This document shows, piece by piece, positions 8,853 to 60,253 of a DNA stretch of 64,000 bases. Both the position numbers and the translations under genes were made by a program. Every line of letters begins with the position of its first letter. Within the stretch, counting starts at the first letter, position 1. Below the pieces are notes generated by a model. It was not told the DNA's origin, searched no databases, and worked only from the letters and a program-made list of their open reading frames with translations. Where the stretch lies: contig JBBDJV010000020.1 in the NCBI GenBank assembly GCA_040879725.1, positions 9,086-73,085 of the forward strand, in the 5' to 3' direction. The stretch is from Minisyncoccota bacterium. Its GTDB lineage: Bacteria > Patescibacteriota > Minisyncoccia > Phycocordibacterales > GCA-2401445.

Positions 8853-8895
8853 CTTAGTCTAATTTGGTATAGGTACAGAACGAACAATCTACCCA

Positions 8896-8916
8896 GTACA
8901 AGGGGTCCCCTTGTAC
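8896..8916. repeat. Perfect 10+1+10 palindrome GTACAAGGGG-T-CCCCTTGTAC
   Basis: Seen directly; lies 10 bp upstream of repeat copy 1. Confidence 0.8.
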
Positions 8917-8925
8917 TATGCAATT

Positions 8926-8955
8926 TAAGTGCGCACGCCGGCGTGCGCACTTAAA
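8926..8955. repeat. Interspersed GC-rich palindromic repeat, copy 1 (core GCGCACGCCGGCGTGCGC at 8931-8948)
   Basis: 30-bp perfect palindrome TTAAGTGCGCACGCCGGCGTGCGCACTTAA followed by ATGGCTT. The same core recurs at 24586-24603 and 59357-59374. Confidence 0.85.
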
Positions 8956-9032
8956 TGGCTTAAAATAAGGTTCAAAAAGAACCAATTAACCCCTTGAGAC
9001 ACATTTAGACCTCGAATAAAACACCAATAAAT

Positions 9033-9059
9033 TGACTTTTATACTAAAAATGATATAAT
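9033..9059 (+). promoter_or_regulatory. Sigma70-like promoter with an extended -10
   Basis: -35 TTGACT (9033-9038), 15-nt spacer, then TGaTATAAT (9051-9059). Predicted TSS is about 9066, some 60 nt upstream of the small ORF. Confidence 0.55.
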
Positions 9060-9129
9060 TATATTAGTGAATACCTTACAAAGACGAGTCTCCCTTCGAG
9101 ACAAAGTCCAAAGGGAGTGTTTCCAAATC

Positions 9130-9246
9130 ATGCATTCTGTGGTCGAAGGAAAGATTACAGAAGAACGGGCTGTGGAGCTCATTCGTAAGGCTCAACAGCG
9201 CAAGGAAAAATTTTTCGGAAAAAAAGAAAACCAACCAGTTTTCTGA
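9130..9246 (+). CDS. Small 38-aa protein (MHSVVEGKITEERAVELIRKAQQRKEKFFGKKENQPVF), function unknown
   Basis: AAGGGAG Shine-Dalgarno 12 nt upstream of the ATG, with a promoter upstream and an intrinsic terminator downstream. It is below the ORF-track size cutoff. Confidence 0.5.
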   Translation: MHSVVEGKITEERAVELIRKAQQRKEKFFGKKENQPVF

Positions 9247-9270
9247 CAATCCGAAAAACAAAAACAAGAA

Positions 9271-9296
9271 CGACCCAACAGTGGGTCGTTTTCTTT
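9271..9296 (+). terminator. Rho-independent terminator after the 38-aa ORF
   Basis: CGACCCA-ACAG-TGGGTCG hairpin followed by TTTTCTTT. Confidence 0.65.
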
Positions 9297-10484: not shown

Positions 10485-11175
10485 TTTTTCTTAAATATTT
10501 ATAGCTATAGAGCGTTATTCCAAATAGTAGCACACCTGCTAAAAGTACCACAACAAGGCCGGTAATGTCCCCTGAATAAGCGCTTTTTCCGGCATACGTA
10601 TATATAAACGAGAACGGTATAATTCCGATAAGCGTCGCGAGCATAAACTTCTTAAACGATATTGTACTTACTATACCGAGCGCGTAGGATAAAACATCGA
10701 CCGGTAGCATCATTCGAAGAAAAACAATTGCCCAGAATTCACCTTTTTCAGGAATTATCTTTTGGTACCACACAAGCAACTTATCAGACAAAAAATAGCG
10801 CACTGCCGGTCTTCCGTACTTTCGCGCGATAATAAACGCAATACCAGACCCTATTTCCCAAGCAATAATACTTGCTATACTGGCAACCAACGGACCAAAG
10901 ATTGCTCCCGCAACAGGAATTAGTGGCGCGAGGGTAATCGGCGCAACAACCGTCGCAACCACCATAAGAAACATATAAATCAGCAAACCTCCCCGAGTAT
11001 CATTCTCAACTAATGTTTTTAAGTAATTAAACGGCTCATGCCAGAACAATGGAATAACCATTATCCCTATAAGCAAAATTGAAAATAAACCGTATTTTAG
11101 AGATAGGAAATTTTTCGGCTGAGTATCCACAACTTCTCTATGAGTGGAGCTCTGGCTGTCGTCTTCCCGATTCAT
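10450..11175 (-). CDS. DedA/TVP38-family membrane protein
   Basis: Multi-pass membrane protein whose pattern resembles the TVP38/TMEM64 (SNARE-associated) domain. Confidence 0.45.
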   Translation of the reverse strand: MNREDDSQSSTHREVVDTQPKNFLSLKYGLFSILLIGIMVIPLFWHEPFNYLKTLVENDTRGGLLIYMFLMVVATVVAPITLAPLIPVAGAIFGPLVASIASIIAWEIGSGIAFIIARKYGRPAVRYFLSDKLLVWYQKIIPEKGEFWAIVFLRMMLPVDVLSYALGIVSTISFKKFMLATLIGIIPFSFIYTYAGKSAYSGDITGLVVVLLAGVLLFGITLYSYKYLRKNDTQTNNSSDT

Positions 11176-16742: not shown

Positions 16743-19271
16743 CTACTTGGAGACAATAACCCACCCCTCGTTCTTGATGAGGTTTTCGGCTTTTTTATAC
16801 TTCATTGTTTCTTGTTTTCCGTCTTTTTCAATGGTCACAACATCATTTCGGCCATATTTTGAGTCACCTTTTTCAACCACACCACTGCGGGTTATCATCT
16901 TTGCATTTTTCACCACGCTATTGGCTACTTTTAACTCAAGTGAGTTTGGACCAGCTCCTCCGGGTGAAAAATGTTCAAGTACGCGCTCAATCTGCCCATC
17001 TACTGAGTCATTGAATTCTTTGAACAAGCGCAATCCTTCCTTTTTATACTCAACAAGAGGGTCTCTCTGTCCGTACGCACGCAAGTTTACACTACTTCGC
17101 ATATAATCCATTACCTCGAGGTGCTCAATCCAATACATGTCGATTGTCTGTAGGTAAAGCTGTCTAAATGCTGTCCAGAAACGTTCTGGCTCAATTTCTG
17201 CTTTTATTTTTTCAATGTGACTGCGTGCAATTTCATTTTGCTGAAGTCGCTCTTCGAGTAATTCTTCGAGCTTTTCCTGATCAGCTAACAATATAGTTCT
17301 TCGTTTCTCATACACACTTCTTCTTTGCTGATTCAATACGTCGTCGTACTGAAGTACGTGCTTTCTGCTATCAAAGTAATGTCCTTCGATTTTCGTTTGA
17401 GCACTTTCAAGCGTTCGAGTAATCATCTTGTTTTCAATCGGCTGATCCTCTGGAATACCGAAACTTCCCATTACGCGTTTGAGTGTATCAGACGCAAAAA
17501 CTCGCATTAGATGGTCCTCAAGTGATACAAAGAACTGCGTTTCGCCCGGGTCTCCCTGTCGTCCTGAGCGACCTCGAAGCTGGTTGTCTATTCTGCGCGC
17601 TTCGTGTCTCTCGGTTGCAATTACGAACAATCCTCCCAAACTTTTCACTTCCTCGTATTCTTCCTCCGACCCTGGGTTACCTCCCAGCTTAACGTCCACT
17701 CCTCGCCCTGCCATATTGGTAGCAATGGTAACTTTGCCTTTTGTTCCCGCCTGCGCGATGATCTCTCCTTCTCTTTCATGGTTTTTTGCGTTCAATACTT
17801 CATGCGGTACGCCTTCTTTAGTGAGGTACGCGGAAAGTAGTTCGTTCTTCTCGATTGAAACCGTTCCTATCAAAACAGGTTGTCCTTTTGAGTGGAGCTC
17901 TTTAACTTTTTTTGCTATAGCACTAAACTTCCCTTTTTCAGTTTGAAAAATGAGATCATTCCTATCAATACGAGCAACCGGCTTGTTTGTTGGAACAATA
18001 ATGGTAAGCAGGCCGTACACTTTAAGAAACTCTTCCGATGAAGTAACAGCAGTACCTGTCATACCCGCAAGCTTGTCGTACATACGGAAATAGTTTTGAT
18101 ACGTAATCGAAGCAAATGTTCGCGTCTCTTTTTGAATGGGAACATTTTCTTTTGCTTCTATTGCTTGGTGCAGACCCTCAGACCATCTTCGCCCTGGTTG
18201 CAAACGTCCGGTAAATGGATCAACAATTACCACTTCTCCATTACGCACTACATACTCGATATCCTTTTTGAAAAGTGCTTTCGCGCGAACTGCTGTCTCA
18301 AGATGATGAACATACTTTATTCCTTTATCAGTATAAATATTTTCAACTCCAAGACTCTTTTCTGCTTTCTCAATACCGGAATCAGTAAGAGTAATAGCCT
18401 TTAGCTTTTCATCCACTTCAAAATCTTCTCCCGTTTTAAGCGTACCGGCAATACGAGCGAATTGAGTGTAGAAATCTTCAGATTCTCCTGCTGGTGCTGA
18501 AATAATAAGCGGAGTTCTCGCTTCATCGATAAGAATGGAGTCTATTTCATCGACAATCGCAAGGTTGTGTCCTCTTTGGCGTATTTTATTTTTATCGTAT
18601 TCAATATTGTCACGCAGATAGTCAAAGCCAAACTGACTATTTGTTCCATATGTTATATCGGCAAGGTACGCTTCTTTTCGCGTACACGGACGAAGGTATT
18701 CATAGCGAACTTTAAACGATCCAAGTGTATCTCGAAGTTCATCTATCTCTTCTCCTTCAGGTATGGTGTGTTCCGGATCATAAATATATGATTCATCACC
18801 ACTGATTATTCCGACGCTTAATCCAAGGAAACTGTACACCTGGCCCATCCACACAGCGTCACGTCGAGCAAGGTAATCATTTACCGTTACCACATGCACA
18901 CCTTTTTCTGTTAGTGCGTTTAAGTATGCAGGAAGTGTTGCAACAAGAGTCTTACCTTCACCGGTTCGCATTTCTGCAATTCCTCTTTCATGCAAAATCA
19001 TTCCTCCAATAAGCTGAACATCGAAATGTCTCTGCTCAAGTGTTCGTTTGGAAGCTTCCCGGACAAGCGCAAACGCTTCCGCGAGAAGATCATCGAGTGT
19101 GCTTCCATCTTTAATCTTCTCCTTTAACTTCTCTGTTTCTTTTACAAAGTCCGCATCGGAAAGTGCACTAAAACGGCTTTCCAGAGCGTTAATTTGTTCC
19201 ACCTTTGGTTGAAGGCGTTTGAGAGCTTGTGAAGTTTCGTCACCAAATATTTTTGCGAATAAACCTGCCAT
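16743..19271 (-). CDS. secA: Preprotein translocase subunit SecA
   Basis: MAGLFAKIFGD...GEGKTLVATL...DEIDSILIDEARTPLIIS. The ATG at 19271 gives an 842-aa protein. The track's longer TTG-initiated ORF to 19460 runs through a terminator and another gene's repeats. Confidence 0.9.
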   Translation of the reverse strand: MAGLFAKIFGDETSQALKRLQPKVEQINALESRFSALSDADFVKETEKLKEKIKDGSTLDDLLAEAFALVREASKRTLEQRHFDVQLIGGMILHERGIAEMRTGEGKTLVATLPAYLNALTEKGVHVVTVNDYLARRDAVWMGQVYSFLGLSVGIISGDESYIYDPEHTIPEGEEIDELRDTLGSFKVRYEYLRPCTRKEAYLADITYGTNSQFGFDYLRDNIEYDKNKIRQRGHNLAIVDEIDSILIDEARTPLIISAPAGESEDFYTQFARIAGTLKTGEDFEVDEKLKAITLTDSGIEKAEKSLGVENIYTDKGIKYVHHLETAVRAKALFKKDIEYVVRNGEVVIVDPFTGRLQPGRRWSEGLHQAIEAKENVPIQKETRTFASITYQNYFRMYDKLAGMTGTAVTSSEEFLKVYGLLTIIVPTNKPVARIDRNDLIFQTEKGKFSAIAKKVKELHSKGQPVLIGTVSIEKNELLSAYLTKEGVPHEVLNAKNHEREGEIIAQAGTKGKVTIATNMAGRGVDVKLGGNPGSEEEYEEVKSLGGLFVIATERHEARRIDNQLRGRSGRQGDPGETQFFVSLEDHLMRVFASDTLKRVMGSFGIPEDQPIENKMITRTLESAQTKIEGHYFDSRKHVLQYDDVLNQQRRSVYEKRRTILLADQEKLEELLEERLQQNEIARSHIEKIKAEIEPERFWTAFRQLYLQTIDMYWIEHLEVMDYMRSSVNLRAYGQRDPLVEYKKEGLRLFKEFNDSVDGQIERVLEHFSPGGAGPNSLELKVANSVVKNAKMITRSGVVEKGDSKYGRNDVVTIEKDGKQETMKYKKAENLIKNEGWVIVSK

Positions 19272-19296
19272 AGAGCTGATATAGTAGCATAAATAT

Positions 19297-19334
19297 AAAA
19301 AACCTCCCAGACGTGAATCTGGGAGGTTTTTTTT
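19297..19334 (-). terminator. Hairpin terminator between the Lys-rich gene and secA
   Basis: AAAAAA-CCTCCCAG-ACGTGAAT-CTGGGAGG-TTTTTTTT: an 8-bp stem with A/T runs on both sides. Confidence 0.65.
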
Positions 19335-19341
19335 GAAAGAC

Positions 19342-19497
19342 CTATCGCTTCTTCTTAGCAGGCTTTCGCTTTGTTGTCTTCTTCGCAGCCTTCTTTTTTG
19401 CAGGCTTTCGCTTTGTTGTTTTCTTAGCCACCTTCTTCTTAGCTGGCTTTCGCTTAGCAACTTTCTTCTTAGTTGCCTTTTTCTTTTTTGCTGGCAT
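19342..19497 (-). CDS. Lys-rich histone-H1-like small basic protein (MPAKKKKATKKKVAKRKPAKKKVAKKTTKRKPAKKKAAKKTTKRKPAKKKR)
   Basis: ATG at 19497, stop at 19342-19344, and a terminator hairpin immediately downstream. It is built from about three imperfect tandem 45-bp DNA repeats encoding (T)KRKPAKKK units. It is in a different frame from the spurious SecA N-terminal extension. Confidence 0.5.
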   Translation of the reverse strand: MPAKKKKATKKKVAKRKPAKKKVAKKTTKRKPAKKKAAKKTTKRKPAKKKR

Positions 19498-24447: not shown

Positions 24448-24581
24448 GAATTTATACTACCAGAAACTACTTAAGTATGGAAGAAATATACATCCATACT
24501 CTCAAAATGAGTAGCAAATAATGCTTCTACACTGGAAATTTGAATACTACAGGGCAAATTCATGCCTTAACAAAGCCATTT

Positions 24582-24615
24582 AAATGCGCACGCCGGCGTG
24601 CGCATTTATTTTTAT
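24582..24615 (+). repeat. GC-rich palindromic repeat, copy 2 (core 24586-24603), with a T-run; terminator-like
   Basis: AAATGCGCACGCCGGCGTGCGCATTT followed by ATTTTTAT. The flanking 45 bp (24536-24581) match the flank of copy 3 in inverted orientation. Confidence 0.8.
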
Positions 24616-24703
24616 AGAGGTTTAACCTCGTTTGAAATAACTTAATTCAGAAGTCTTACTATATATCGTAAGAAATGCTTTTTGATCAAAGTAACTCAGT
24701 GGC

Positions 24704-37604: not shown

Positions 37605-38159
37605 TTATTTCTGTGCGAATTGCTTCCAATTTTTCACATATGTAAGTGCTGACTGGTACCCAAGTGCTAAGTGTGGATTATCACGCACATAATAATGCTT
37701 AAATAGCCCCTTATTATATAGTGATTGGACAGTAAACTTTGGATCATTCACTGCAACTATTATTTTTTTAGGTTTAAGTTCCTTTCTCAAATCTAGAATT
37801 CCATGAGAAAAATATGGACTATAAACAAGTGCCACATCGCCTCTTTTCCAATCCTCTACAATACCCTTCTTTATCAATTTAATAATTCCACTTGTATCAA
37901 TAGGCAAGTTGTAAAAACAAACATAGCGGTAAAATGATTCAGCTTCAAAGAAACGTTCAGTTACGCCAGTAGCATTCTGATGTGCATCAAAAATATCACA
38001 AAGCCACATAGTGCCTGAACGAGCAACAAGAGTACCTAGAATGAGCGTTTTGCCGTTCTGCAATCCTCTTTCATACTCATCATCAACCCTATCTAATTCA
38101 TCAGCGGTATACTTATGGCGCGAATCCCACGATAAGCAAAGTTTTCCAATTTTTCTCAT
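37605..38159 (-). CDS. Sulfotransferase-like protein (tentative)
   Basis: ILGTLVARSGTMWL resembles the 5'-PSB loop (PKSGTTW/RSGTxxL) of PAPS-dependent sulfotransferases. At 184 aa it is short for the family. Confidence 0.3.
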   Translation of the reverse strand: MRKIGKLCLSWDSRHKYTADELDRVDDEYERGLQNGKTLILGTLVARSGTMWLCDIFDAHQNATGVTERFFEAESFYRYVCFYNLPIDTSGIIKLIKKGIVEDWKRGDVALVYSPYFSHGILDLRKELKPKKIIVAVNDPKFTVQSLYNKGLFKHYYVRDNPHLALGYQSALTYVKNWKQFAQK

Positions 38160-40445: not shown

Positions 40446-41783
40446 TTATTTATTCTTTTCATGATTACCTTCAATCAAGGTCAATATTTCTTTGATAGAC
40501 ATGCAATATTTTTCTGAAGCCTCCTTTGACCTTCCATTTTCTAAAATAGCACGTGCGGTGTTAACCATTGCGGGGTAAGCACTTCGAAGTAAATGATTCG
40601 CATAAATAACTATCCTGAAGCCCATTTTCTCTAAATCTGTCTCGTTAAGATGGTTATATGTTGTAGGGACCGCAACAAGTGGAGTGTTGCTTCCAAACTC
40701 CTTATATTTCTTACAAAACTCTTCTATTTCATCAATTTTTTTATCTTTACTATGTATCATTATTCCATCAGCTCCAGCAGCTATATACGCCTTCGCACGC
40801 TTAAGAGCATCATCTACACCTTTACCTAAAATCAAACTTTCAATACGAGCAATGATCATGAAATCTTCAGAAATACGAGCATTCCGACCCACAGCGAGCT
40901 TCTCACAGAAATTTTTTATACTTTCCAATTCCTGTTTAACAGCAGTACCAAACAAGGAATTTCTCTTCAAACCTTTTTTATCTTCAATAATAACCGCAGA
41001 CACGCCCAGCCGTTCAAGTGTTTTTACTGTATAAGGAAAATGCTCAACTAAGCCACCTGTATCGCCATCGTAAATTACAGGCTTGGTAGTAATTTCCAAA
41101 ATATCATGCAGTGTACCAATACGAGATGTTAGATCTACCAATTCAATATCAGGCTTGCCTTTCATAGTCGAATCAGTAAGGCTACTTAACCACATAAAAT
41201 CAAATTCTCTCACAACACCCTTTTTCTCAATCTGCGTATGTTCAGCTATAAGTGCCGATAAACCACTATGAGCTTCAATACCTTTTACTATTGCCTTTGC
41301 GTCTAACAACCGTCTCAATCTTGATATCCTAACACTTGGTGTAACACCAACTTCTTTTAATGCCTTATTGAGCAATGATGACGAAATACCTTCAGTATAA
41401 TTTGGCTCAACCAATACCCCACCCCATTCTTTTAGTAACTTAACAACCTGTGCACGCACCTCTTTTTGAATCCCCTTTTTCCAATCATCACCATGCACAA
41501 CAACATCAGGTTTAACCTTTCTTAAATTTGAAGAATAGTCGAGTGTTTCTTGAGGGATCACTTCACTGACACCAACTATACTCGAAACAATCTCCTTCCT
41601 CTGTTCATATGATAAAAAAGGTAGTCTTTTGTAGCTTGCGATAGCTTTGTCTGTAAGTAGGCCGACAATAACTCTCCCATGTTTTGCACCCTCACGAATA
41701 ATTTTTAAATGGCCAGGATGTATTAAATCAGCACTCATTCCTATGTATACTATCTTTTCTCCCTTTTGTTTTATTTTATTCAT
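40446..41783 (-). CDS. ppm: Bifunctional cytidylyltransferase / phosphoenolpyruvate mutase fusion
   Basis: N-terminal cytidylyltransferase fold ([15 protein letters not shown] HxGH motif). The C-terminal PEP-mutase/ICL-superfamily barrel carries the PEP-mutase-specific [11 protein letters not shown] motif. Confidence 0.75.
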
Positions 41784-41877: not shown

Positions 41878-42657
41878 TTAGGCCATAATGTTTTTTAGTT
41901 TTTTCACATATGTAAGTGCTGAAGTCATGCGAAATATGAATTGAAAAAATGTGATACTTCTGTCTACTTGTATTCGTGGAATACGATAGACATTTGCGCC
42001 ACTGGTAACCAGCGCTTCAGTTATACAACACGCGCCACGAAAATGCCTTGCGATAACAGACTCCACTCGCTTATCCACCCTCCCAGCAGGATACGCGCAG
42101 AGTGTTGAGGTAGTTCCAGTCAATTGTGTGATGCGTTGTTTGGATGACTCAATCTCACGTACTAACTCCGAGTCAGACAATTCCGTAAAATTAGTATGAC
42201 TTTCACCGTGAACTTCAAATGTAACTACTCCTTCCTTTGCAATGCGTTGTACTCCCTCTTCTGTCGGTCGGGAAAGGTTTCCTAATTTCTCCATAGGAGC
42301 GAGATTGGTCGTGAGAAAAACAGTTGCGGGAATGCCATATTTTTTTAGCAGTGGAGCAACAAATGAAATGGTATCTTCATATCCATCATCTATTGTTATC
42401 GCCACACTCCTACGCGGAAGAATGCTCTTTCCTTCAATATGATTTACTACATCATGAAGCGAAACAGGATTCATATTACTTTTTATGTATTTCAGTTGCT
42501 GCTCGAAAGCTTTTTCTGAAACACCATATTTCCACGAAGTATTCTCGACCGAATGGTACATAAGCACCGCTATTTCTGGCCGTGCATCAAAAATACGAAA
42601 CAAACATCGTACAAGGAATGCAAAAAAATATACTATTGTTTTTATTAGTGACTGCAT
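41878..42657 (-). CDS. Polysaccharide deacetylase (CE4/NodB homology domain)
   Basis: AITIDDGYEDT and FEVHGESH motifs with an N-terminal TM helix. Confidence 0.7.
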   Translation of the reverse strand: MQSLIKTIVYFFAFLVRCLFRIFDARPEIAVLMYHSVENTSWKYGVSEKAFEQQLKYIKSNMNPVSLHDVVNHIEGKSILPRRSVAITIDDGYEDTISFVAPLLKKYGIPATVFLTTNLAPMEKLGNLSRPTEEGVQRIAKEGVVTFEVHGESHTNFTELSDSELVREIESSKQRITQLTGTTSTLCAYPAGRVDKRVESVIARHFRGACCITEALVTSGANVYRIPRIQVDRSITFFQFIFRMTSALTYVKKLKNIMA

Positions 42658-52446: not shown

Positions 52447-53609
52447 ATTTTTTTGATTGAAAGACATAGTTCCATAAAATCTCCAGCAAGTCTATCCCAG
52501 CTATATGTTTCAACCGCAAGTCGTCTCCCTGCTTCGGTAATACTCTTTGCGTGTTCAGGTATTTGCATAAGTTCACTTACCGCGTGAGCAAGCGCCCCGG
52601 GATTATCCGGTTCCACCAAAATACCGGTAACTCGGTCCTCTATAAAATCAACTATCCCACCTACTGGTGTTCCGATAACCGGCAGTCCCGCAGACATTGC
52701 TTCAACAAAAGAATTTCCAAACCCTTCAGACCGGGACGTACGCACAAAAACATCGCTTGCGTGAAGATACTTTGGCAACTCATCTTGCGGAATAGTTGGC
52801 ACAAAATGAACCCTATCAAGTACACGCAACTCTCGCGCTAGCTGTGAAAGCGAGGTTCCCAACGGTCCACTTCCAACAATAAGTACGTGTACTTTTTTAT
52901 TCAGCAGAGGAAGAGTACGTACTAATGTATCAAGTCCGTTTTTATACACCAAACGCGACGTACTCACGAGCACATACGCGGAAGTGGGAATATGAAACTT
53001 CTGACGCAATGCATGCTTTTCCACCTCTGAAGCTCGCGCGGTAAACAGAGAAACATCAACTCCGTTTGGAAGTAGTGTAATAGGCGCTTTGGTGTCAGTC
53101 GCTTCCGCGCGCTTTTTTAAGTAGTTACTGATAACAGTAATGTGTGTTGCGGACCGTATAGGAAAATAGTGGAGCGGTCGAACTAAAAAGCGAAAAAGCA
53201 AATCATTGTTGAATACGTACCGTTTGAGATGTACTTCATCATCTCCCTCTTGCAGTGTGAGAATAAAACTTTTTTTATTTCTCATCCTGTGGAAAAGCGC
53301 TCCCGCAAGTCCTCCGAAACTTGCCATAATACCCCAAACACAATCATATGAAATGTGTCGCGAACGAATGAGAGCAACAAAAAAACCAGTCACCGGAAAT
53401 AGGTATTTATCGATAGGGTGTCCAATACCAACCCTTCGTACAGATACGGAACCGATTTGTTCATGCTTTGAGAGTGCTCGAGAATAGCGCGGAGTAAGCA
53501 TGTCAAAAGCAATACGTTCTTCGGGGATACGTTTTGTTAATTCATGAACCGCAATTTCCGCCCCACCTATGTGGGGAAGATAGTCCGTACTAAAAATTAA
53601 GATTTTCAT
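52443..53609 (-). CDS. GT4 glycosyltransferase
   Basis: N-terminal STDYLPHIGGAE and C-terminal RSEGFGNSFVEAMSAGLPVIGT. Confidence 0.7.
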   Translation of the reverse strand: MKILIFSTDYLPHIGGAEIAVHELTKRIPEERIAFDMLTPRYSRALSKHEQIGSVSVRRVGIGHPIDKYLFPVTGFFVALIRSRHISYDCVWGIMASFGGLAGALFHRMRNKKSFILTLQEGDDEVHLKRYVFNNDLLFRFLVRPLHYFPIRSATHITVISNYLKKRAEATDTKAPITLLPNGVDVSLFTARASEVEKHALRQKFHIPTSAYVLVSTSRLVYKNGLDTLVRTLPLLNKKVHVLIVGSGPLGTSLSQLARELRVLDRVHFVPTIPQDELPKYLHASDVFVRTSRSEGFGNSFVEAMSAGLPVIGTPVGGIVDFIEDRVTGILVEPDNPGALAHAVSELMQIPEHAKSITEAGRRLAVETYSWDRLAGDFMELCLSIKKI

Positions 53610-55117
53610 TCCTCTTCTATAATATCGTACTCTTCGGCTTCTTTCACCTCCTTATGTTTACTAAGTTGTAATGCAAAAACAGGAATAACCGACAGCGCCA
53701 CGAGTCCGATAATCCACCAGACTATACCACCCTCTCTACCCTCTGTCATACTATATGGAACTCCCGCAGTAAGAGTGCTCGTGGAGCCTGTATTTGTCTC
53801 TTCATCGGTTTCACTTATCTCACTATCAGTGTCTTCCTCTGCTTCTGTATTTTGGGGCGCAGGCGCGGAGCCTGCCTCCGCGCCCGCGCTTGGATCAACC
53901 ATTTTCGCAACTGCAACTTTTCTTTGAGTAGGAGCGCTTGCCTGAGGTCTGGAAGATATAGGAACTTCTTTTACCGCTCTGTATTCCGCAACAGGAACAC
54001 CTAGCGTGTCATGAAGCTGTACTGTTTTTCCTTGTGTTATCGGAAAACCAAAAACATATGAACCGAAAGGAGTTGATTGGTATGAAGAAAGAATACTCCT
54101 GGGAGGAAATGCGAACATTTGTTCACCTACATGAATACTCCATGAAGTAATGTCTATTGGATGCTGTGATTCGTTTTTCAACGTAACATACCCGTTAGTG
54201 CCGTACGTAACATCTTCAATAACAATCGTAGGACGCACTACTGTGACAATTACCTGATCCACAGCGTTGTATTCACCGGATGAAACAGAGAGAACGGCGG
54301 TATACTGACCAGGGTAGTGGTAGCGATACAGAATATTTTGTCCCTCAACAAACGTCCCATCTCCCAAATTCCATGTGTACCTAGCAGTTGTAAGTGCTTC
54401 ATTCTGAAACCCGTATCCACGTCCGTGAAAAGTTACCTCGCTTCCCACAAAAACTGTTTTTGAGCTTCCCGCATCTGCGGTTAATCTTTTATTTCCCGGT
54501 TGAAGCAGAGGAACGGAACCATTCCCTTCTCCAGAGTTTTCCTGTGAGCTGTTTTGATTTGTACTTCCTGAATTAGTCTCTTCGTCTGACTCTGTTGTTT
54601 CTTCCGGAAGAGCATGATGGCTATTTGCACTTCCAGGTGTCGGAGCACCCACTCCCCAAGTGCCTTGTAGCATCTGTAGTGTATTACCATCTCCATTTTC
54701 TCCAAGATTTGTGTCATACGTAACCTCGAAGAGAACTGTTTTATCGCCGTCTGCAAGTGAAAGAGTCTCTCCATCATTTTTTAATGAAAACGAACTATCG
54801 AACAACACACCACTCCACCCAGGATTATCACTAAGAAATGTTTGTGCGTCATCCGCAATAACAGCGTAGCTACCTGCTTCCATCTGTGTTCCACCTTGGA
54901 ATTCATGTATACCGTGATACACACCTCCTTCAAGAAAGGTGTACTCGGTAAGTGTGAGTGGTTCTGTTGTGTATACCTCTATCCATTCATGCTTCCCATC
55001 TCCTCCGGGGAAATCATACATAATTTCTGTTATCGAAAGAGACGCGTGAGAAAAAAGCGGAACGATGTACAGTGCGAAACTAAAAATTATTATAAAACTA
55101 TTGCGAGTCCTCACCAT
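53606..55117 (-). CDS. Cell-surface protein: signal peptide, lamin-tail domain, acidic linker, PKD domain, second LTD-like domain, C-terminal TM anchor
   Basis: SITEIMYDFPGGDGKHEWIEVYTTE is the lamin-tail-domain signature. YTWNLGDGT...YPGQYTAVLSVS is a classic PKD motif. The C-terminal WWIIGLVALSVIPVFAL helix is followed by a KHKE basic stop-transfer. Confidence 0.6.
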   Translation of the reverse strand: MVRTRNSFIIIFSFALYIVPLFSHASLSITEIMYDFPGGDGKHEWIEVYTTEPLTLTEYTFLEGGVYHGIHEFQGGTQMEAGSYAVIADDAQTFLSDNPGWSGVLFDSSFSLKNDGETLSLADGDKTVLFEVTYDTNLGENGDGNTLQMLQGTWGVGAPTPGSANSHHALPEETTESDEETNSGSTNQNSSQENSGEGNGSVPLLQPGNKRLTADAGSSKTVFVGSEVTFHGRGYGFQNEALTTARYTWNLGDGTFVEGQNILYRYHYPGQYTAVLSVSSGEYNAVDQVIVTVVRPTIVIEDVTYGTNGYVTLKNESQHPIDITSWSIHVGEQMFAFPPRSILSSYQSTPFGSYVFGFPITQGKTVQLHDTLGVPVAEYRAVKEVPISSRPQASAPTQRKVAVAKMVDPSAGAEAGSAPAPQNTEAEEDTDSEISETDEETNTGSTSTLTAGVPYSMTEGREGGIVWWIIGLVALSVIPVFALQLSKHKEVKEAEEYDIIEEE

Positions 55118-56993
55118 TGATCACTTTTTTCAAAGTTTCTTCTGATATTTCTCTCTTGGTAGTAGACGCTTCTTTATCTGATTCTTTTTTCCCTTGTTCT
55201 TTACCTATTTGTTCCGTTTGATTTGGTTCTTCACTGTTCTGTTCATTTGGAGTATTTTTTAGCAGTGACGCCAAAGCACTTCTTAACTCATTCTTCTTTT
55301 CTTCACTTGGACCTTTAGTGTCTTGGAAGACACGCTGTTTCTCTTTCTTCTGAAGAATTGTAAGCGACAAAGGTTTGTCTTGTTGCTCTGGTGTGGCAAC
55401 ATTTTCTTGTGTGTGCTCGGTGGTATTTTGATTTGAAGAATGTTCTGAAAAATGTTGCGAAGAGTGTTCTGGATCCTGCGCAAACGTCAGTGGTGTTGCG
55501 GGAGTTTTGGGCATATTTTGCTTGCGAATGAAGTTGTTTTTACTCCCAGTATCTTTTTGATCATATCGAGGGCGAGCGGTGTTTGGTGCACTCTCGCTAC
55601 CGTGCTGTCGGTTATTTCTGTCGTTTTGTACTCGACGGTCCTGGCCATTTCCTTGCGAAGATTTTGCGGGAGCGGACGTAGGAGCAAGAAGTACTCGAAC
55701 CTCATTTTCAACAATCGCTCGAGGTCGAGAAAACGCTTTTCGCGATATCTCAATTATTTCTTCTTTCTGGCTTATTTCAGGTCGAGGGATCGGAGGAATG
55801 GTTCGCGCTGAAAATGGCTGAGAACCCACACCGTCAATCATGAGTTTTAGATATATTTGAGCAAAATTGAGATTTACCAAATCTTCTGCGAGGAACGTAG
55901 GTGAAAATTCTTTTTCGAGTGTTTCCGCATCGTATGCACCCACACGAAAGGTTATCATTGTACCCACGTTTCCAAAAACCGCAGCGCGAACCTCTTCGGA
56001 CATCTGCTCAATGTACTGATGCGCCATTGTGAGATTGAGTTTATATTTTCGAGCTTCAGATAGAATGTCTGCAAATGACTCGTTTGCAAAAGACTGAAAC
56101 TCATCCACGTAGAGATAGAAATTAGGAAGATCTTTTTTCAGCACACCTTCATCAATATCCGCTCGAGACATTGCTGCTAGGTATATTTTAGTAATAAGCA
56201 TTGAGCCAATAAGGTTTGCATTCGCTTCACCCACTCGCCCCTTTGAAAGGTTTACGATAATTATTTTTTTCTCGTCCATCATTTTTCTCAGATCAAATGA
56301 TGACTTTGGCTGTCCGATAATATTCCTGATAAGCGGGTTTGAGGTAAACTGTCCTACTTTGTTTTGGATAGCAGGTGTTGCTTCCGCAGTAAAACGGTCA
56401 GTATAGTTTGCAAACTCATCTACCCAAAAAGCTCGGACAGACGCGTCTTGTATATTATCTACCACTTTTTTTCTAAAGTGTTTATCCGAGAGCATCCTGT
56501 TTACCGAAAGAAGAGTGGCGTTTGGATATTCCAGAAGTGCTAAGAGCGTATTGTTTAAAATGTATTCCATGCGGGCGCTCCACGCATCAGCCCAAATCTT
56601 CTTAAACGTTGACATAAGACCAGAGACAACCAAATGGCGCTTGTCATACCCTACGTCTTCCATAATGTTAAATGAAATAGGGTTTTCCAAATCAAAAGGA
56701 GCGAAATACATAACATCCTGTCTTCGCTCTTGCGGAACATAGTCGAGTAAAAGATCAGCAGTCTGACCGTGCGGGTCGATAAATGCCATACCTTCACCAT
56801 TTTTCATGTCCTGCACTGCCATGTTTTCAAGCAGTGTGGATTTACCCATGCCCGTTTTCCCTATCACATAGACATGACGGGTTCGGTCTTTTGCTTTAAT
56901 GCCAAAGGGAATGCATTTGTTACGTGCATCTGTCTCGGCAAAATAGGTTACTCGCTCTTCGTTATACATTAGGTTTAGTATATCACTATACAA
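55098..56993 (-). CDS. VirD4/TraD/TraG-type (type IV coupling protein-like) P-loop ATPase, soluble, with a 220-aa disordered polar C-terminal tail
   Basis: Walker A VIGKTGMGKST and Walker B FYLYVDEFQSF. The LTMAHQYIEQM...FGNVGTMITFRVG block matches the T4CP C-terminal (TraG-D_C-like) pattern. TTG start at 56993, with an alternative ATG at 56969. Confidence 0.5.
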   Translation of the reverse strand: MYSDILNLMYNEERVTYFAETDARNKCIPFGIKAKDRTRHVYVIGKTGMGKSTLLENMAVQDMKNGEGMAFIDPHGQTADLLLDYVPQERRQDVMYFAPFDLENPISFNIMEDVGYDKRHLVVSGLMSTFKKIWADAWSARMEYILNNTLLALLEYPNATLLSVNRMLSDKHFRKKVVDNIQDASVRAFWVDEFANYTDRFTAEATPAIQNKVGQFTSNPLIRNIIGQPKSSFDLRKMMDEKKIIIVNLSKGRVGEANANLIGSMLITKIYLAAMSRADIDEGVLKKDLPNFYLYVDEFQSFANESFADILSEARKYKLNLTMAHQYIEQMSEEVRAAVFGNVGTMITFRVGAYDAETLEKEFSPTFLAEDLVNLNFAQIYLKLMIDGVGSQPFSARTIPPIPRPEISQKEEIIEISRKAFSRPRAIVENEVRVLLAPTSAPAKSSQGNGQDRRVQNDRNNRQHGSESAPNTARPRYDQKDTGSKNNFIRKQNMPKTPATPLTFAQDPEHSSQHFSEHSSNQNTTEHTQENVATPEQQDKPLSLTILQKKEKQRVFQDTKGPSEEKKNELRSALASLLKNTPNEQNSEEPNQTEQIGKEQGKKESDKEASTTKREISEETLKKVINGEDSQ

Positions 56994-58518: not shown

Positions 58519-58794
58519 CTAGAGCGATGAAGAGGTATCATCAGATAAATGTGTTTTCTCTTCTTCATACTCTTCCTCAGGTTCGGGAGAAGTATCTTTT
58601 GTGTCAGTATCTTGTGAATTTTCTACTTCATAAAACTCTTCAAAGTCATTTTTAAGTGAGAAAGAAAGAATTACGATAAGTGCACCAATTACTACAAAGG
58701 CAATTGTTTTCCATTCACTATACACCCCAAGCAATGGGATCAGTACCACAAAAATTCCAAGCCAAATAAGTATAGTGAGTTTTTTCATACGCAA
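58519..58794 (-). CDS. Small membrane protein with two TM helices and an acidic C-terminal tail
   Basis: ORF only; hydrophobic N-terminal half followed by a D/E-rich C-terminus. Confidence 0.35.
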   Translation of the reverse strand: MRMKKLTILIWLGIFVVLIPLLGVYSEWKTIAFVVIGALIVILSFSLKNDFEEFYEVENSQDTDTKDTSPEPEEEYEEEKTHLSDDTSSSL

Positions 58795-58878
58795 ATATTA
58801 TATCGAAAATAGTTAGAAGAACCTAATATTGACCTGAATGCTATCTAGGGTAAAGTATAGGAGGAAGGAAAATTAGTT

Positions 58879-59154
58879 ATGACAAAACCACTAGCACTAA
58901 GCGAGGACATGTTCGTCCCTCTCGTCGACTGGTGGTTTGAGCTCAAATCACCAGTCGCGGGAACATTCCGCGGCAAAGTAACAAAGTATGAACTTCTCTC
59001 ACCTCACCAGGTTAATATCTCTTGGGTTGAAGAAGGAAACTCAAAAATCGTTACCCTTACGTTTTCCGTTTGGAAGGAGGAAGTTGGAAAAATCACCTTC
59101 AAAACGGACATGTTCGGAGAAACCGGAATTTTTACAAAGACCCTGATCGCGTAA
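58879..59154 (+). CDS. Hypothetical 91-aa protein
   Basis: Strong Shine-Dalgarno AGGAGGAAGGAAA 10 nt upstream of the ATG at 58879. Confidence 0.5.
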   Translation: MTKPLALSEDMFVPLVDWWFELKSPVAGTFRGKVTKYELLSPHQVNISWVEEGNSKIVTLTFSVWKEEVGKITFKTDMFGETGIFTKTLIA

Positions 59155-59575
59155 TGCGGTTGGGGTTTCTTTTTTAAAAAATTAAATAAGTTTTTAAACG
59201 AGATTTTCTGAACGAAATTTAACCTCGTTCAAAAAAATCCTGAGGTTTAACCTCAGGAAAAAAACCTCATGAGAAAAGTAACAGATATGACAACCACCAT
59301 AGATGCAAAAAACCCCAGGTGTACCGATATATCGGTACACCTTTATAAAAATAAATGCGCACGCCGGCGTGCGCATTTAAATGGCTTTGTTTAGCCATGT
59401 ATTTACCCTGTAGTATTCAATTTCCTACTGAACGAGATTAAACCTCGTTCAGAATTAGCTATATATAGCAACGTATTTTTCTCCCGAGGTTTAACCTCGC
59501 TGAAAAGTTTAACCTCGCTGAAAAGTTTCCTGAGGTTTAACCTCAGGAGAGAACCTTGGAGAATACGTATTCGTA
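59155..59575. repeat. Repeat- and hairpin-dense convergent intergenic region, including GC-palindrome repeat copy 3 (core 59357-59374)
   Basis: Contains several GAGGTTTAACCTC-type inverted repeats: 59209-59231, 59239-59257, 59428-59452, 59486-59498 and 59539-59557. Also contains tandem 18-mers GTTTAACCTCGCTGAAAA (59489-59524), the palindromes CTCATGAG and GAATACGTATTC, and two stacked minus-strand terminators (59357-59374 with a T-run; 59317-59342 followed by GGGGTTTTTT). Confidence 0.8.
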
Positions 59576-60253
59576 TTACGGTGCGATGATTACCGCAAAC
59601 TCTCCACGAAGCTTGTCTGTATTGTTTGCAAAGTATTCTATAACCTTCGCGGGTGTGCCCGACACTATTTCCTCATAAATTTTTGTTAGCTCTCTTGCTA
59701 TTGCGATAGTCCTCTCTGGAACGTATTCATTCAAAGACGCTAAAGTCTTTTCTATTCTGTGTGGAGATTCGTAAAACACAACAGTTCGTTTTGTCTCGGC
59801 TATCTCTTTAAAAAGTGTTTCTCTCCCCTTTTTATGGGGAATAAATCCAAAAAAAGTAAACTCATGCGCGGGCAATCCGGCAATCGAAAGTGCGGCAACA
59901 AGAGCTGAAGGTCCAGGAACCGCAACTATGTTTGCAGTTGGTAGTTTGGTGCGTATGTGGGACACAAGTACAACCCCGGGATCTGAAATACCAGGAGTTC
60001 CCGCATCTGACACAAGCGCAAGATTCTTCCCTTCGGAAAGCATTGCTACAATACTGTCTTCTTTGCCTTCCGTGCTGTGTGTGTGGTACGACATTGTTCG
60101 TGTCGGCACTCCGTATGTATCAAGAAGCCGTTTTGTCATACGCGTATCCTCACAAAGAATAATATCCACTTCCTTGAGCACTCGTAGTGCACGAAGTGTA
60201 ATATCCTCTAAGTTTCCTATAGGTGTACCTATAACATGTAATGTTCCGGTCAT
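59576..60253 (-). CDS. rsmI: 16S rRNA (cytidine1402-2'-O)-methyltransferase
   Basis: N-terminal LHVIGTPIGNLEDIT, GEFAVII and the tetrapyrrole-methylase fold; 225 aa. Confidence 0.8.
   Translation of the reverse strand: MTGTLHVIGTPIGNLEDITLRALRVLKEVDIILCEDTRMTKRLLDTYGVPTRTMSYHTHSTEGKEDSIVAMLSEGKNLALVSDAGTPGISDPGVVLVSHIRTKLPTANIVAVPGPSALVAALSIAGLPAHEFTFFGFIPHKKGRETLFKEIAETKRTVVFYESPHRIEKTLASLNEYVPERTIAIARELTKIYEEIVSGTPAKVIEYFANNTDKLRGEFAVIIAP

Follow-up and report, generated by a model that had tools for sequence, protein, structure and literature searches.

The 64-kb window analysed here is the whole 64,000-nucleotide (nt) stretch of contig JBBDJV010000020.1 from a Minisyncoccota bacterium. 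Its intergenic spacer at 59155-59575 is probably a lineage-specific mosaic of two short palindromic repeat families that accreted in an ancestral terminator spacer of ~60 bp and that also form a predicted stack of transcription terminators. The spacer comprises 421 bp and separates the convergent 3' ends of rsmI and of a gene encoding 91 amino acids (aa). It is a recent pile-up limited to this species, with repeats that probably do no more than stop transcription at several successive points. As a feature it is of a common kind, and it does not represent a conserved regulatory RNA. Proteobacteria, Neisseria and streptococci are well-known hosts of interspersed palindromic repeats. Convergent intergenic sites are a typical sink for elements of the kind of repetitive extragenic palindromes and bacterial interspersed mosaic elements (REP/BIME), neisserial intergenic mosaic elements (NIME) or BOX elements. 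For the Patescibacteria, our literature searches gave no description of such repeats in their small, streamlined genomes.

Hairpins and repeat units of the spacer

The spacer harbors five perfect hairpins with a stem length of 8 bp or more, compared to 0.105 on average and 3 at most in 1000 dinucleotide shuffles, and these are 5 of the 34 such hairpins of the whole window. Terminator-like sites amount to 8 in the region 58700-59700 versus 1.0 in shuffles. An earlier annotation based on the letters alone (the sequence-only reading) had described the spacer as densely packed with inverted repeats, tandem 18-mers and stacked terminators, and our repeat, terminator and tandem scans recovered nearly every element in its place. 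The features of the spacer and of its flanking genes are as follows, with the strand given where one was assigned:

58879-59154, plus strand: 91-aa open reading frame (ORF), the stop of which adjoins the left edge of the spacer
59138-59168, plus strand: terminator-like hairpin with CTTTTTT, overlapping the stop of the 91-aa gene
59204-59236: Ua, TTTTCTGAACGAAATTTAACCTCGTTCAAAAAA, a degenerate GAGG-type hairpin that starts the left repeat block (repeat and terminator scans; imperfect hairpin at 59208-59231)
59238-59258, minus strand: Ub, TCCTGAGGTTTAACCTCAGGA, with 10-bp arms, followed by TTTTTTT on the minus strand and thus terminator-like (repeat and terminator scans)
59262-59280, minus strand: half-unit AACCTCATGAGAAAA with the small palindrome CTCATGAG (59266-59273); 14-nt period, 2.1 copies
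59317-59342, minus strand: perfect palindrome AGGTGTACCGATATATCGGTACACCT with 13-bp arms, followed by GGGGTTTTTT on the minus strand; second consecutive predicted terminator (repeat and terminator scans)
59336-59430, plus strand: 95-nt interspersed repeat ('E element') consisting of an A-rich leader, the GC palindrome and the tail AATGGCTTTGTTTAGCCATGTATTTACCCTGTAGTATTCAATTTCC (repeat search)
59352-59379: GC-rich perfect palindrome TAAATGCGCACGCC/GGCGTGCGCATTTA with 14-bp arms and its core at 59357-59374 (motif, hairpin and terminator scans)
59382-59399: small hairpin ATGGCT-TTGTTT-AGCCAT in the tail of the 95-nt repeat (copy alignment, folding)
59428-59452: Ua', CTGAACGAGATTAAACCTCGTTCAG, with a 9-bp stem and a 7-nt loop, starting the right repeat block (repeat and hairpin scans)
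59455-59470: AT-centred palindrome TAGCTATATATAGCAA between units (direct reading; a small hairpin in the folds)
59485-59499: Uc, CGAGGTTTAACCTCG, with 7-bp arms (repeat and motif scans)
59489-59528, plus strand: exact tandem of the 18-mer GTTTAACCTCGCTGAAAA, 2.2 copies, 100% identity (tandem scan)
59528-59548: Ub', identical to Ub, with 10-bp arms, ending the right repeat block (repeat and hairpin scans)
59561-59572: palindrome GAATACGTATTC just past the rsmI stop (direct reading)
59576-60253, minus strand: rsmI, encoding an RsmI-type methyltransferase (Pfam TP_methylase)

The five inverted repeats of the sequence-only reading are all present, although the last one is located at 59528-59548 instead of 59539-59557, and the hairpin at 59317-59342 is followed by GGGGTTTTTT on the minus strand as described, while its arms span 13 bp instead of 10. 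The proposed duplication of GTTTAACCTCGCTGAAAA proved to be an exact tandem, the small palindromes CTCATGAG and GAATACGTATTC can be read directly, and the GC palindrome noted at 59357-59374 is the core of the longer perfect palindrome 59352-59379.

Two families can be distinguished among these elements. Family 1 comprises the GC palindrome and the 95-nt repeat around it, while family 2 consists of hairpin units centred on GAGGTTWAACCTC with the invariant core GAGGTT(T/A)AACCTC (GAGG units). The motif GAGGTTTAACCTC occurs exactly at 59242, 59486 and 59532, with one mismatch at 59434 and with two at 59214; in the window it reaches 9 strand-matches versus 0.05 expected. When six GAGG units were aligned on their centres, the inner six pairs were invariant, while the outer stem pairs vary by unit class and are still complementary (CTGAACGAG...CTCGTTCAG versus TCCTGAGG...CCTCAGGA). 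The units are arranged in two blocks of direct orientation, 59196-59282 and 59416-59553, which flank the family-1 copy, and the left block aligns as a compacted version of the right one. All six TTAACCTCR half-sites are found on the plus strand. The direct blocks, the exact 18-mer tandem and the half-sites on one strand suggest that family 2 has expanded by repeated local duplication, and the exact tandem shows that local duplication is still in progress.

On the minus strand, the spacer contains four to five terminator-like sites, the first of which starts 196 nt past the rsmI stop, in agreement with the stacked terminators placed ~200 nt downstream of rsmI by the sequence-only reading. A GC-rich stem-loop plus T-run downstream of a gene, and hence predicted activity as an intrinsic terminator, was found for minus-strand 59379-59352, 59342-59317 and 59258-59238. 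The GC palindrome at 59352-59379 is continued by TTTTTAT on the minus strand and represents the first predicted terminator after rsmI; its plus side is also T-rich. The half-unit at 59262-59280 reads CCTCATGAGG-like on the minus strand and is likewise followed by TTTTTTT. All T-run-bearing hairpins of the spacer face the minus strand. The rsmI transcript must carry a hairpin-rich tail of ~200 nt before the first strong terminator. The plus-strand hairpin at 59138-59168 is likely the ancestral convergent terminator, and the nearest relative has one hairpin in the equivalent place.

The sequence-only reading had seen no credible ORF in the spacer. The only ORFs there comprise 60, 43 and 41 aa (ORF list), and all of them cross the palindromes. 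Peptides from the repeat region found no relatives in a protein search, which was meant also to catch spurious ORFs at other copies. Small protein genes were therefore rejected as an explanation. The 91-aa gene itself is a conserved orphan without Pfam or NCBIfam family and without a relative in the PDB. The RsmI protein is 100% identical to one of a Candidatus Paceibacterota metagenome-assembled genome.

Copies in the window and comparison with a relative

Family 1 is not restricted to the spacer. Its 18-nt all-G/C core GCGCACGCCGGCGTGCGC occurs three times in the window (8931, 24586, 59357) versus 0 expected, and all three copies, with palindromes of 28-34 bp, are intergenic. Outside of the spacer, the repeat-related features are:

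24530-24624, minus strand: second, inverted copy of the 95-nt repeat, between a His-phosphatase gene (stop 24704) and neuB (start 24447), both on the minus strand
24617-24637, plus strand: only GAGG unit outside the spacer, GAGGTTTAACCTCGTTTGAAA, with exact GAGGTTTAACCTC; 8 nt from the GC palindrome 24581-24608
8923-8961, plus strand: third copy, core only, a palindrome with 17-bp arms (ATTTAAGTGCGCACGCC/GGCGTGCGCACTTAAAT) plus GGCTT, without T-run (repeat and hairpin scans)
8895-8917: unrelated perfect hairpin AGTACAAGGGGTCCCCTTGTACT, 5 nt from the third palindrome (hairpin scan)

The spacer copy at 59336-59430 is the reverse complement of 24530-24624, at 35 kb distance, with 89-94% identity depending on the stretch (95 nt at 89%; 91 nt at 92.3%; 82 nt at 93.9%, E 2e-30), and both share an exact run of 48 nt (59344-59391). 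The third copy, 50 kb away, has only the palindrome and the adjoining AATGGCTT in common with the other two, and one pair of its arms is altered on both sides from A-T to G-C. At all three loci the same layout is observed: a variable hairpin, 5-9 nt, the GC palindrome and AATGGCTT, with the hairpin and AATGGCTT on opposite sides of the palindrome. The three loci have unrelated genes as neighbours (YqeY/MYG1, His_Phos/NeuB and 91-aa gene/RsmI), and the copies occur in either orientation relative to these genes. Since the sole outlying GAGG unit adjoins the second GC palindrome at 8 nt, both families are associated, which answers the question of the sequence-only reading whether GAGGTTTAACCTC co-occurs with the GC palindrome elsewhere. 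As a core region, the window is compactly organised, with most gaps below 100 bp, and the three repeat-bearing loci are three of its largest non-coding gaps.

The 747-bp gap with the third GC palindrome also contains a near-consensus promoter at 9032-9059 (TTGACT-16-TATAAT with TG, 11 of 12 matches). Downstream of it lie a possible ORF of 38 aa (9131-9247) and a hairpin at 9269-9290 that is terminator-like only on the minus strand. The region 9032-9290 may thus be an unannotated small gene.

Independent short-read contigs from Logan (SRR27977663) match the window exactly. Two of them end at 59373 and 24598, the break points of a k=31 assembler for the shared run of 48 nt. A further contig (L118) ends at 59398, 36 nt before the point predicted from the two known copies. 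This is a weak hint to a further copy or a strain variant, on which we do not rely; Logan contigs also break elsewhere for unrelated reasons.

In the nearest relative, GCA_964436015.1 (RsmI 78% and NeuB 89% identical), the gene order rsmI, convergent 91-aa homologue, small membrane protein and DUF4015 is kept. The 91-aa homologue (L120 10742-11026, minus strand) shows 40% identity (E 9e-22), and the small membrane protein is 51% identical to its counterpart in the window. Because a homologue is present at the same position, the 91-aa ORF is a real gene. The convergent spacer of the relative measures only 63 bp and includes a single hairpin accompanied by A- and T-runs (L120 ~10733-10762), and ~360 bp of the spacer are therefore a lineage-specific addition. 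None of the spacer motifs was found in 38 kb of GCA_964436015.1 or in three more distant loci.

The neuB locus differs as well. Here the relative possesses a 369-aa gene without Pfam match on the opposite strand between the His-phosphatase gene and neuB (L124 8589-10000), while the window lacks this gene and carries the second 95-nt copy in its 256-bp gap (24448-24703). Upstream of the neuB start, ~45 nt are conserved with the relative (window 24448-24475; L124 9975-10003) and end in a -10-like TAGTATAAAT/TACTATATAT at a distance of only a few bases from the ATG; the neuB mRNA may thus be leaderless or have a very short leader. In the relative, the spacer after the His-phosphatase gene (L124 8590-8730) contains simple repeats, (AAAGGAAAAAGG)n and GAGATTAGAGAT units. 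Intergenic repeat content thus varies between genomes of the clade.

Beyond these genomes, no copies were recovered. Scans of metagenomes gave no match for GGCGTGCGCAYTTAAATGGCTT or for the palindrome with AT flanks, viral scans gave nothing relevant (the two matches were high-GC chance matches), and phage and plasmid collections contained no match to the spacer in a distant blastn. In a scan of genome contigs with the bare 18-mer GCGCACGCCGGCGTGCGC, a pattern that is too loose, the matches listed comprised only chance matches in high-GC genomes; the lowest GC content of a listed locus was 51% and none had AT-rich flanks.

Proposed origin of the mosaic and rival explanations

We propose that the repeats accumulated by insertion and local duplication at a neutral site between convergent genes. 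They would have spread as selfish or duplicative palindromic elements, similar to REP/BIME, NIME or organellar GC clusters, either by means of a trans-acting enzyme or by hairpin-promoted template switching or recombination. As a passive effect, the murC-rsmI transcript would gain a hairpin-rich 3' tail of ~200 nt with up to four successive Rho-independent terminators, and the stacked terminators would insulate the convergent 91-aa gene.

Several observations weigh against this explanation. Among the ~58 genes of the window, the Pfam scan identified no transposase, integrase, recombinase or REP-associated tyrosine transposase (RAYT). In the collections searched, neither family was seen outside this organism. 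The counts of two to three copies for family 1 and one outlying copy for family 2 cover 64 kb only. The 95-nt repeat has no terminal inverted repeats, its ends TATAAAAATAAA... and ...TTCAATTTCC not being complementary, and no duplicated bases as a target-site duplication flank either 95-nt copy or the unit 59238-59548. A clean insertion polymorphism is seen at one locus only, because the neuB locus differs by a whole gene and not by an empty site. In the outer stems of the GAGG units, five pairs with ten cells are changed on both sides, a cell count reached by 0 of 500 shuffles. This covariation, like the pair of the GC palindrome that is altered on both sides, speaks in favour of the proposal as palindromy kept through differing sequences, but since there are only about three independent unit classes it is suggestive and not strong. 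Finally, termination is a prediction at all terminator-like sites.

A more far-reaching version holds that the GC palindrome and the GAGGTTWAACCTC hairpins are the first described actively spreading palindromic family in Paceibacteria and the Candidate Phyla Radiation (CPR), moved by an enzyme not recognisable in the window, creating terminators on landing and marking sites of gene gain and loss. The whole-gene difference to the relative at the neuB locus is found exactly where a repeat copy sits. We regard this version as possible and put it forward tentatively.

The sequence-only reading had offered a riboregulator within a non-coding transcript of ~250 nt, a protein-binding array and a decayed miniature mobile element as explanations that would all fit. 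In the RNA case the minus strand would function as a regulatory 3' untranslated region of rsmI or as an independent small RNA of ~250 nt ending at the double terminator, with stem-loops that act in RNA stability or bind a protein. The minus strand is indeed very stable (-108 kcal/mol, z -9.7 for 286 nt; z -13.5 for the complete spacer), the hairpins are followed by T-runs solely on this strand, and the outer stems of the GAGG units covary. However, the plus strand folds almost equally (z -10.5), and such symmetry is expected of DNA palindromes and therefore singles out no RNA strand. In Rfam 15 no window match reached the gathering threshold and no family reached half its gathering score; the best sub-threshold matches had 24 bits versus 47-369 needed and lay mostly on palindromic or terminator-like hairpins. 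The promoter scan, which does detect the near-consensus site at 9032-9059, found no promoter-like site in the spacer. The hairpin at 59382-59399, the only non-palindromic one, loses a pair without compensation in the 24530-24624 copy, and the family-1 copies lie in either orientation to neighbouring genes. As the nearest relative lacks the whole region, a conserved structured RNA is unsupported, and we consider a functional RNA in this place unlikely. As to a promoter in the repeat tail (TTGTTT-18-TAGTAT), it was too weak for the scan and was rejected; the conserved neuB promoter instead adjoins the ATG both here and in the relative.

The invariant core of the GAGG units with its variable flanks would also fit binding sites for a dimeric DNA-binding protein, in which the GAGGTTWAACCTC palindromes and perhaps the GC palindrome form an operator, a centromere-like or an iteron array with two clusters flanking the centre. 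The central gaps are short (1 nt), as typical of operator half-sites, five to seven sites are gathered within 350 bp with the half-site TTAACCTCR always on the same strand, and an AT-rich stretch is present at 59171-59203. These features contrast with the position of the array, where the 3' ends of two convergent genes face each other and no promoter is available for regulation. Neither adjacent to it nor in the window is there a gene for a regulator, a partition protein or a replication initiator, the spacer shows no switch in GC skew and no DnaA boxes, and in the relative both flanking genes are present although the sites are missing. Recognition of the core alone by a protein would moreover leave the complementary, differing outer stems unexplained, and we therefore judge a binding array to be quite improbable. 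The decayed miniature mobile element that was also suggested by the sequence-only reading fares best of the three as a repeat element, since an interspersed repeat with copies at 35 and 50 kb was found; a classical miniature inverted-repeat transposable element (MITE) it is not, as terminal inverted repeats and target duplication are missing. In its strict form, one decayed MITE of ~311 bp would extend from 59238 to 59548 and be bounded by inverted repeats of 21-23 bp with TCCTGAGGTTTAACCTCAGGA. The arms 59238-59260 and 59526-59548 are 96% complementary and the region is absent from the relative, but these 'terminal repeats' are palindromes themselves and hence equally direct repeats. The flanks offer CAAAAAAA on one side and GAGAGAAC on the other instead of a target-site duplication. 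Within the window the 311-bp unit is unrepeated, recurrence being limited to the inner 95 nt and to individual small units, and no related transposase is encoded; the phage, plasmid, viral and metagenome collections contained no copies. A single MITE is thus very unlikely.

Other identities were tried and rejected. A replication origin or terminus or an iteron array is contradicted by a cumulative GC skew that is monotonic across the window, by the lack of a DnaA box (up to 1 mismatch) in the spacer and by the lack of an initiator gene nearby. GTTTAAC/GTTAAAC formally fit the RYYYAAC/GTTRRRY of integron attC sites but overlap as one 7-mer instead of forming separated core sites, and no integrase is found in the window. 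Likeness to a Xer/dif site is limited to 8 nt (GTGCGCAT) of the E. coli XerC arm, without the 11-6-11 layout. NrdR boxes were dismissed because ATATAT-centred palindromes (59323-59336, 59455-59470, 24665-24680) occur frequently in AT-rich DNA and the surroundings contain no nrd genes.

A mosaic of palindromic repeats can be compared with several known systems, for which we draw on established knowledge and not on database matches. Like the RAYT-associated REP/BIME of enterobacteria and pseudomonads, the elements are short (~20-40 nt) extragenic palindromes dispersed in either orientation, form lineage-specific mosaics with other short motifs at gene 3' ends or between convergent genes, and would be able to act as terminators or mRNA stabilisers. 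Unlike REPs, they lack a conserved GTAG/GTGG tetranucleotide next to the palindrome: neither strand has a GTAG at 0-3 nt from the GC palindrome, and Ua' is the only GAGG unit adjoined by a CTAC. Furthermore, the GC palindrome is perfect, while REPs are typically imperfect, and only three copies of it are seen in 64 kb, in a small Paceibacteria (CPR) host with no RAYT gene in the window. NIME of Neisseria consist of RS units flanked by 20-bp dRS3 palindromes, and here small palindromic GAGG units flank the longer 95-nt repeat in intergenic DNA; both NIME and Correia elements can supply terminators. There is no sequence similarity to NIME and no evidence here of a dRS3-linked recombinase or phage integration, and the terminal inverted repeats and TA duplication of Correia elements are missing from the 95-nt repeat. 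The modular BOX repeats of Streptococcus pneumoniae (boxA-boxB(n)-boxC) have a tandemly variable middle module comparable to the 18-mer tandem, and the 18-nt all-G/C core in a genome of 41% GC resembles the mobile GC-rich palindromic clusters in the AT-richer intergenic DNA of yeast mitochondria. Both differ in host and presumed mode of spread and share no sequence relationship with the spacer. Ordinary Rho-independent terminators likewise combine a GC-rich stem with a T-run right after gene 3' ends, and the relative has one there. However, other terminators in the window are unique, whereas the 28-nt stem recurs at three unrelated loci, once without T-run, and four or five are stacked in a single spacer. 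Since the tetranucleotide of REP and the terminal repeats and target duplication of MITE are missing, we describe the repeats as working like these elements and file them under neither.

Other features of the window and meaning for the lineage

The window encodes Mur ligases, SecA, a P-type ATPase and a long biosynthesis cluster for glycans and phosphonates. This surface-glycan cluster (25973-54000, minus strand) comprises a thiamine pyrophosphate enzyme, an iron-dependent alcohol dehydrogenase, glycerophosphotransferases, many glycosyl- and methyltransferases and, at 40446-41783, a phosphoenolpyruvate mutase fused to a cytidylyltransferase, which suggests a phosphonate-decorated surface polymer. 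A direct repeat TTTTTCACATATGTAAGTGCTGA of 23 nt is exact at 37630-37652 and 41900-41922, each time close to the 3' end of a minus-strand gene, a different one in either case. The SecA ORF (16743-19460, minus strand) has three tandem units of 42 nt with 75-86% identity (19348-19482) in its 5' part, which would encode a repeated, apparently lysine-/alanine-rich N-terminal extension, as read from the DNA letters without translation, and the true start codon of SecA may lie downstream of them. A TrwB/VirD4-like coupling ATPase is located beside a secreted protein with LTD and PKD domains (53606-56993), a pair that is kept in the relative (L120 12931-16237).

For annotation, the rsmI spacer should not be called a gene for a non-coding RNA; most simply, it is a terminator stack made from repeats. 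The occurrence of such repeats in a small Paceibacteria genome is mildly notable. If the full genome shows many copies, they would explain short-read assembly breaks at these sites and could serve to trace recent genome dynamics in a lineage that is regarded as poor in repeats.

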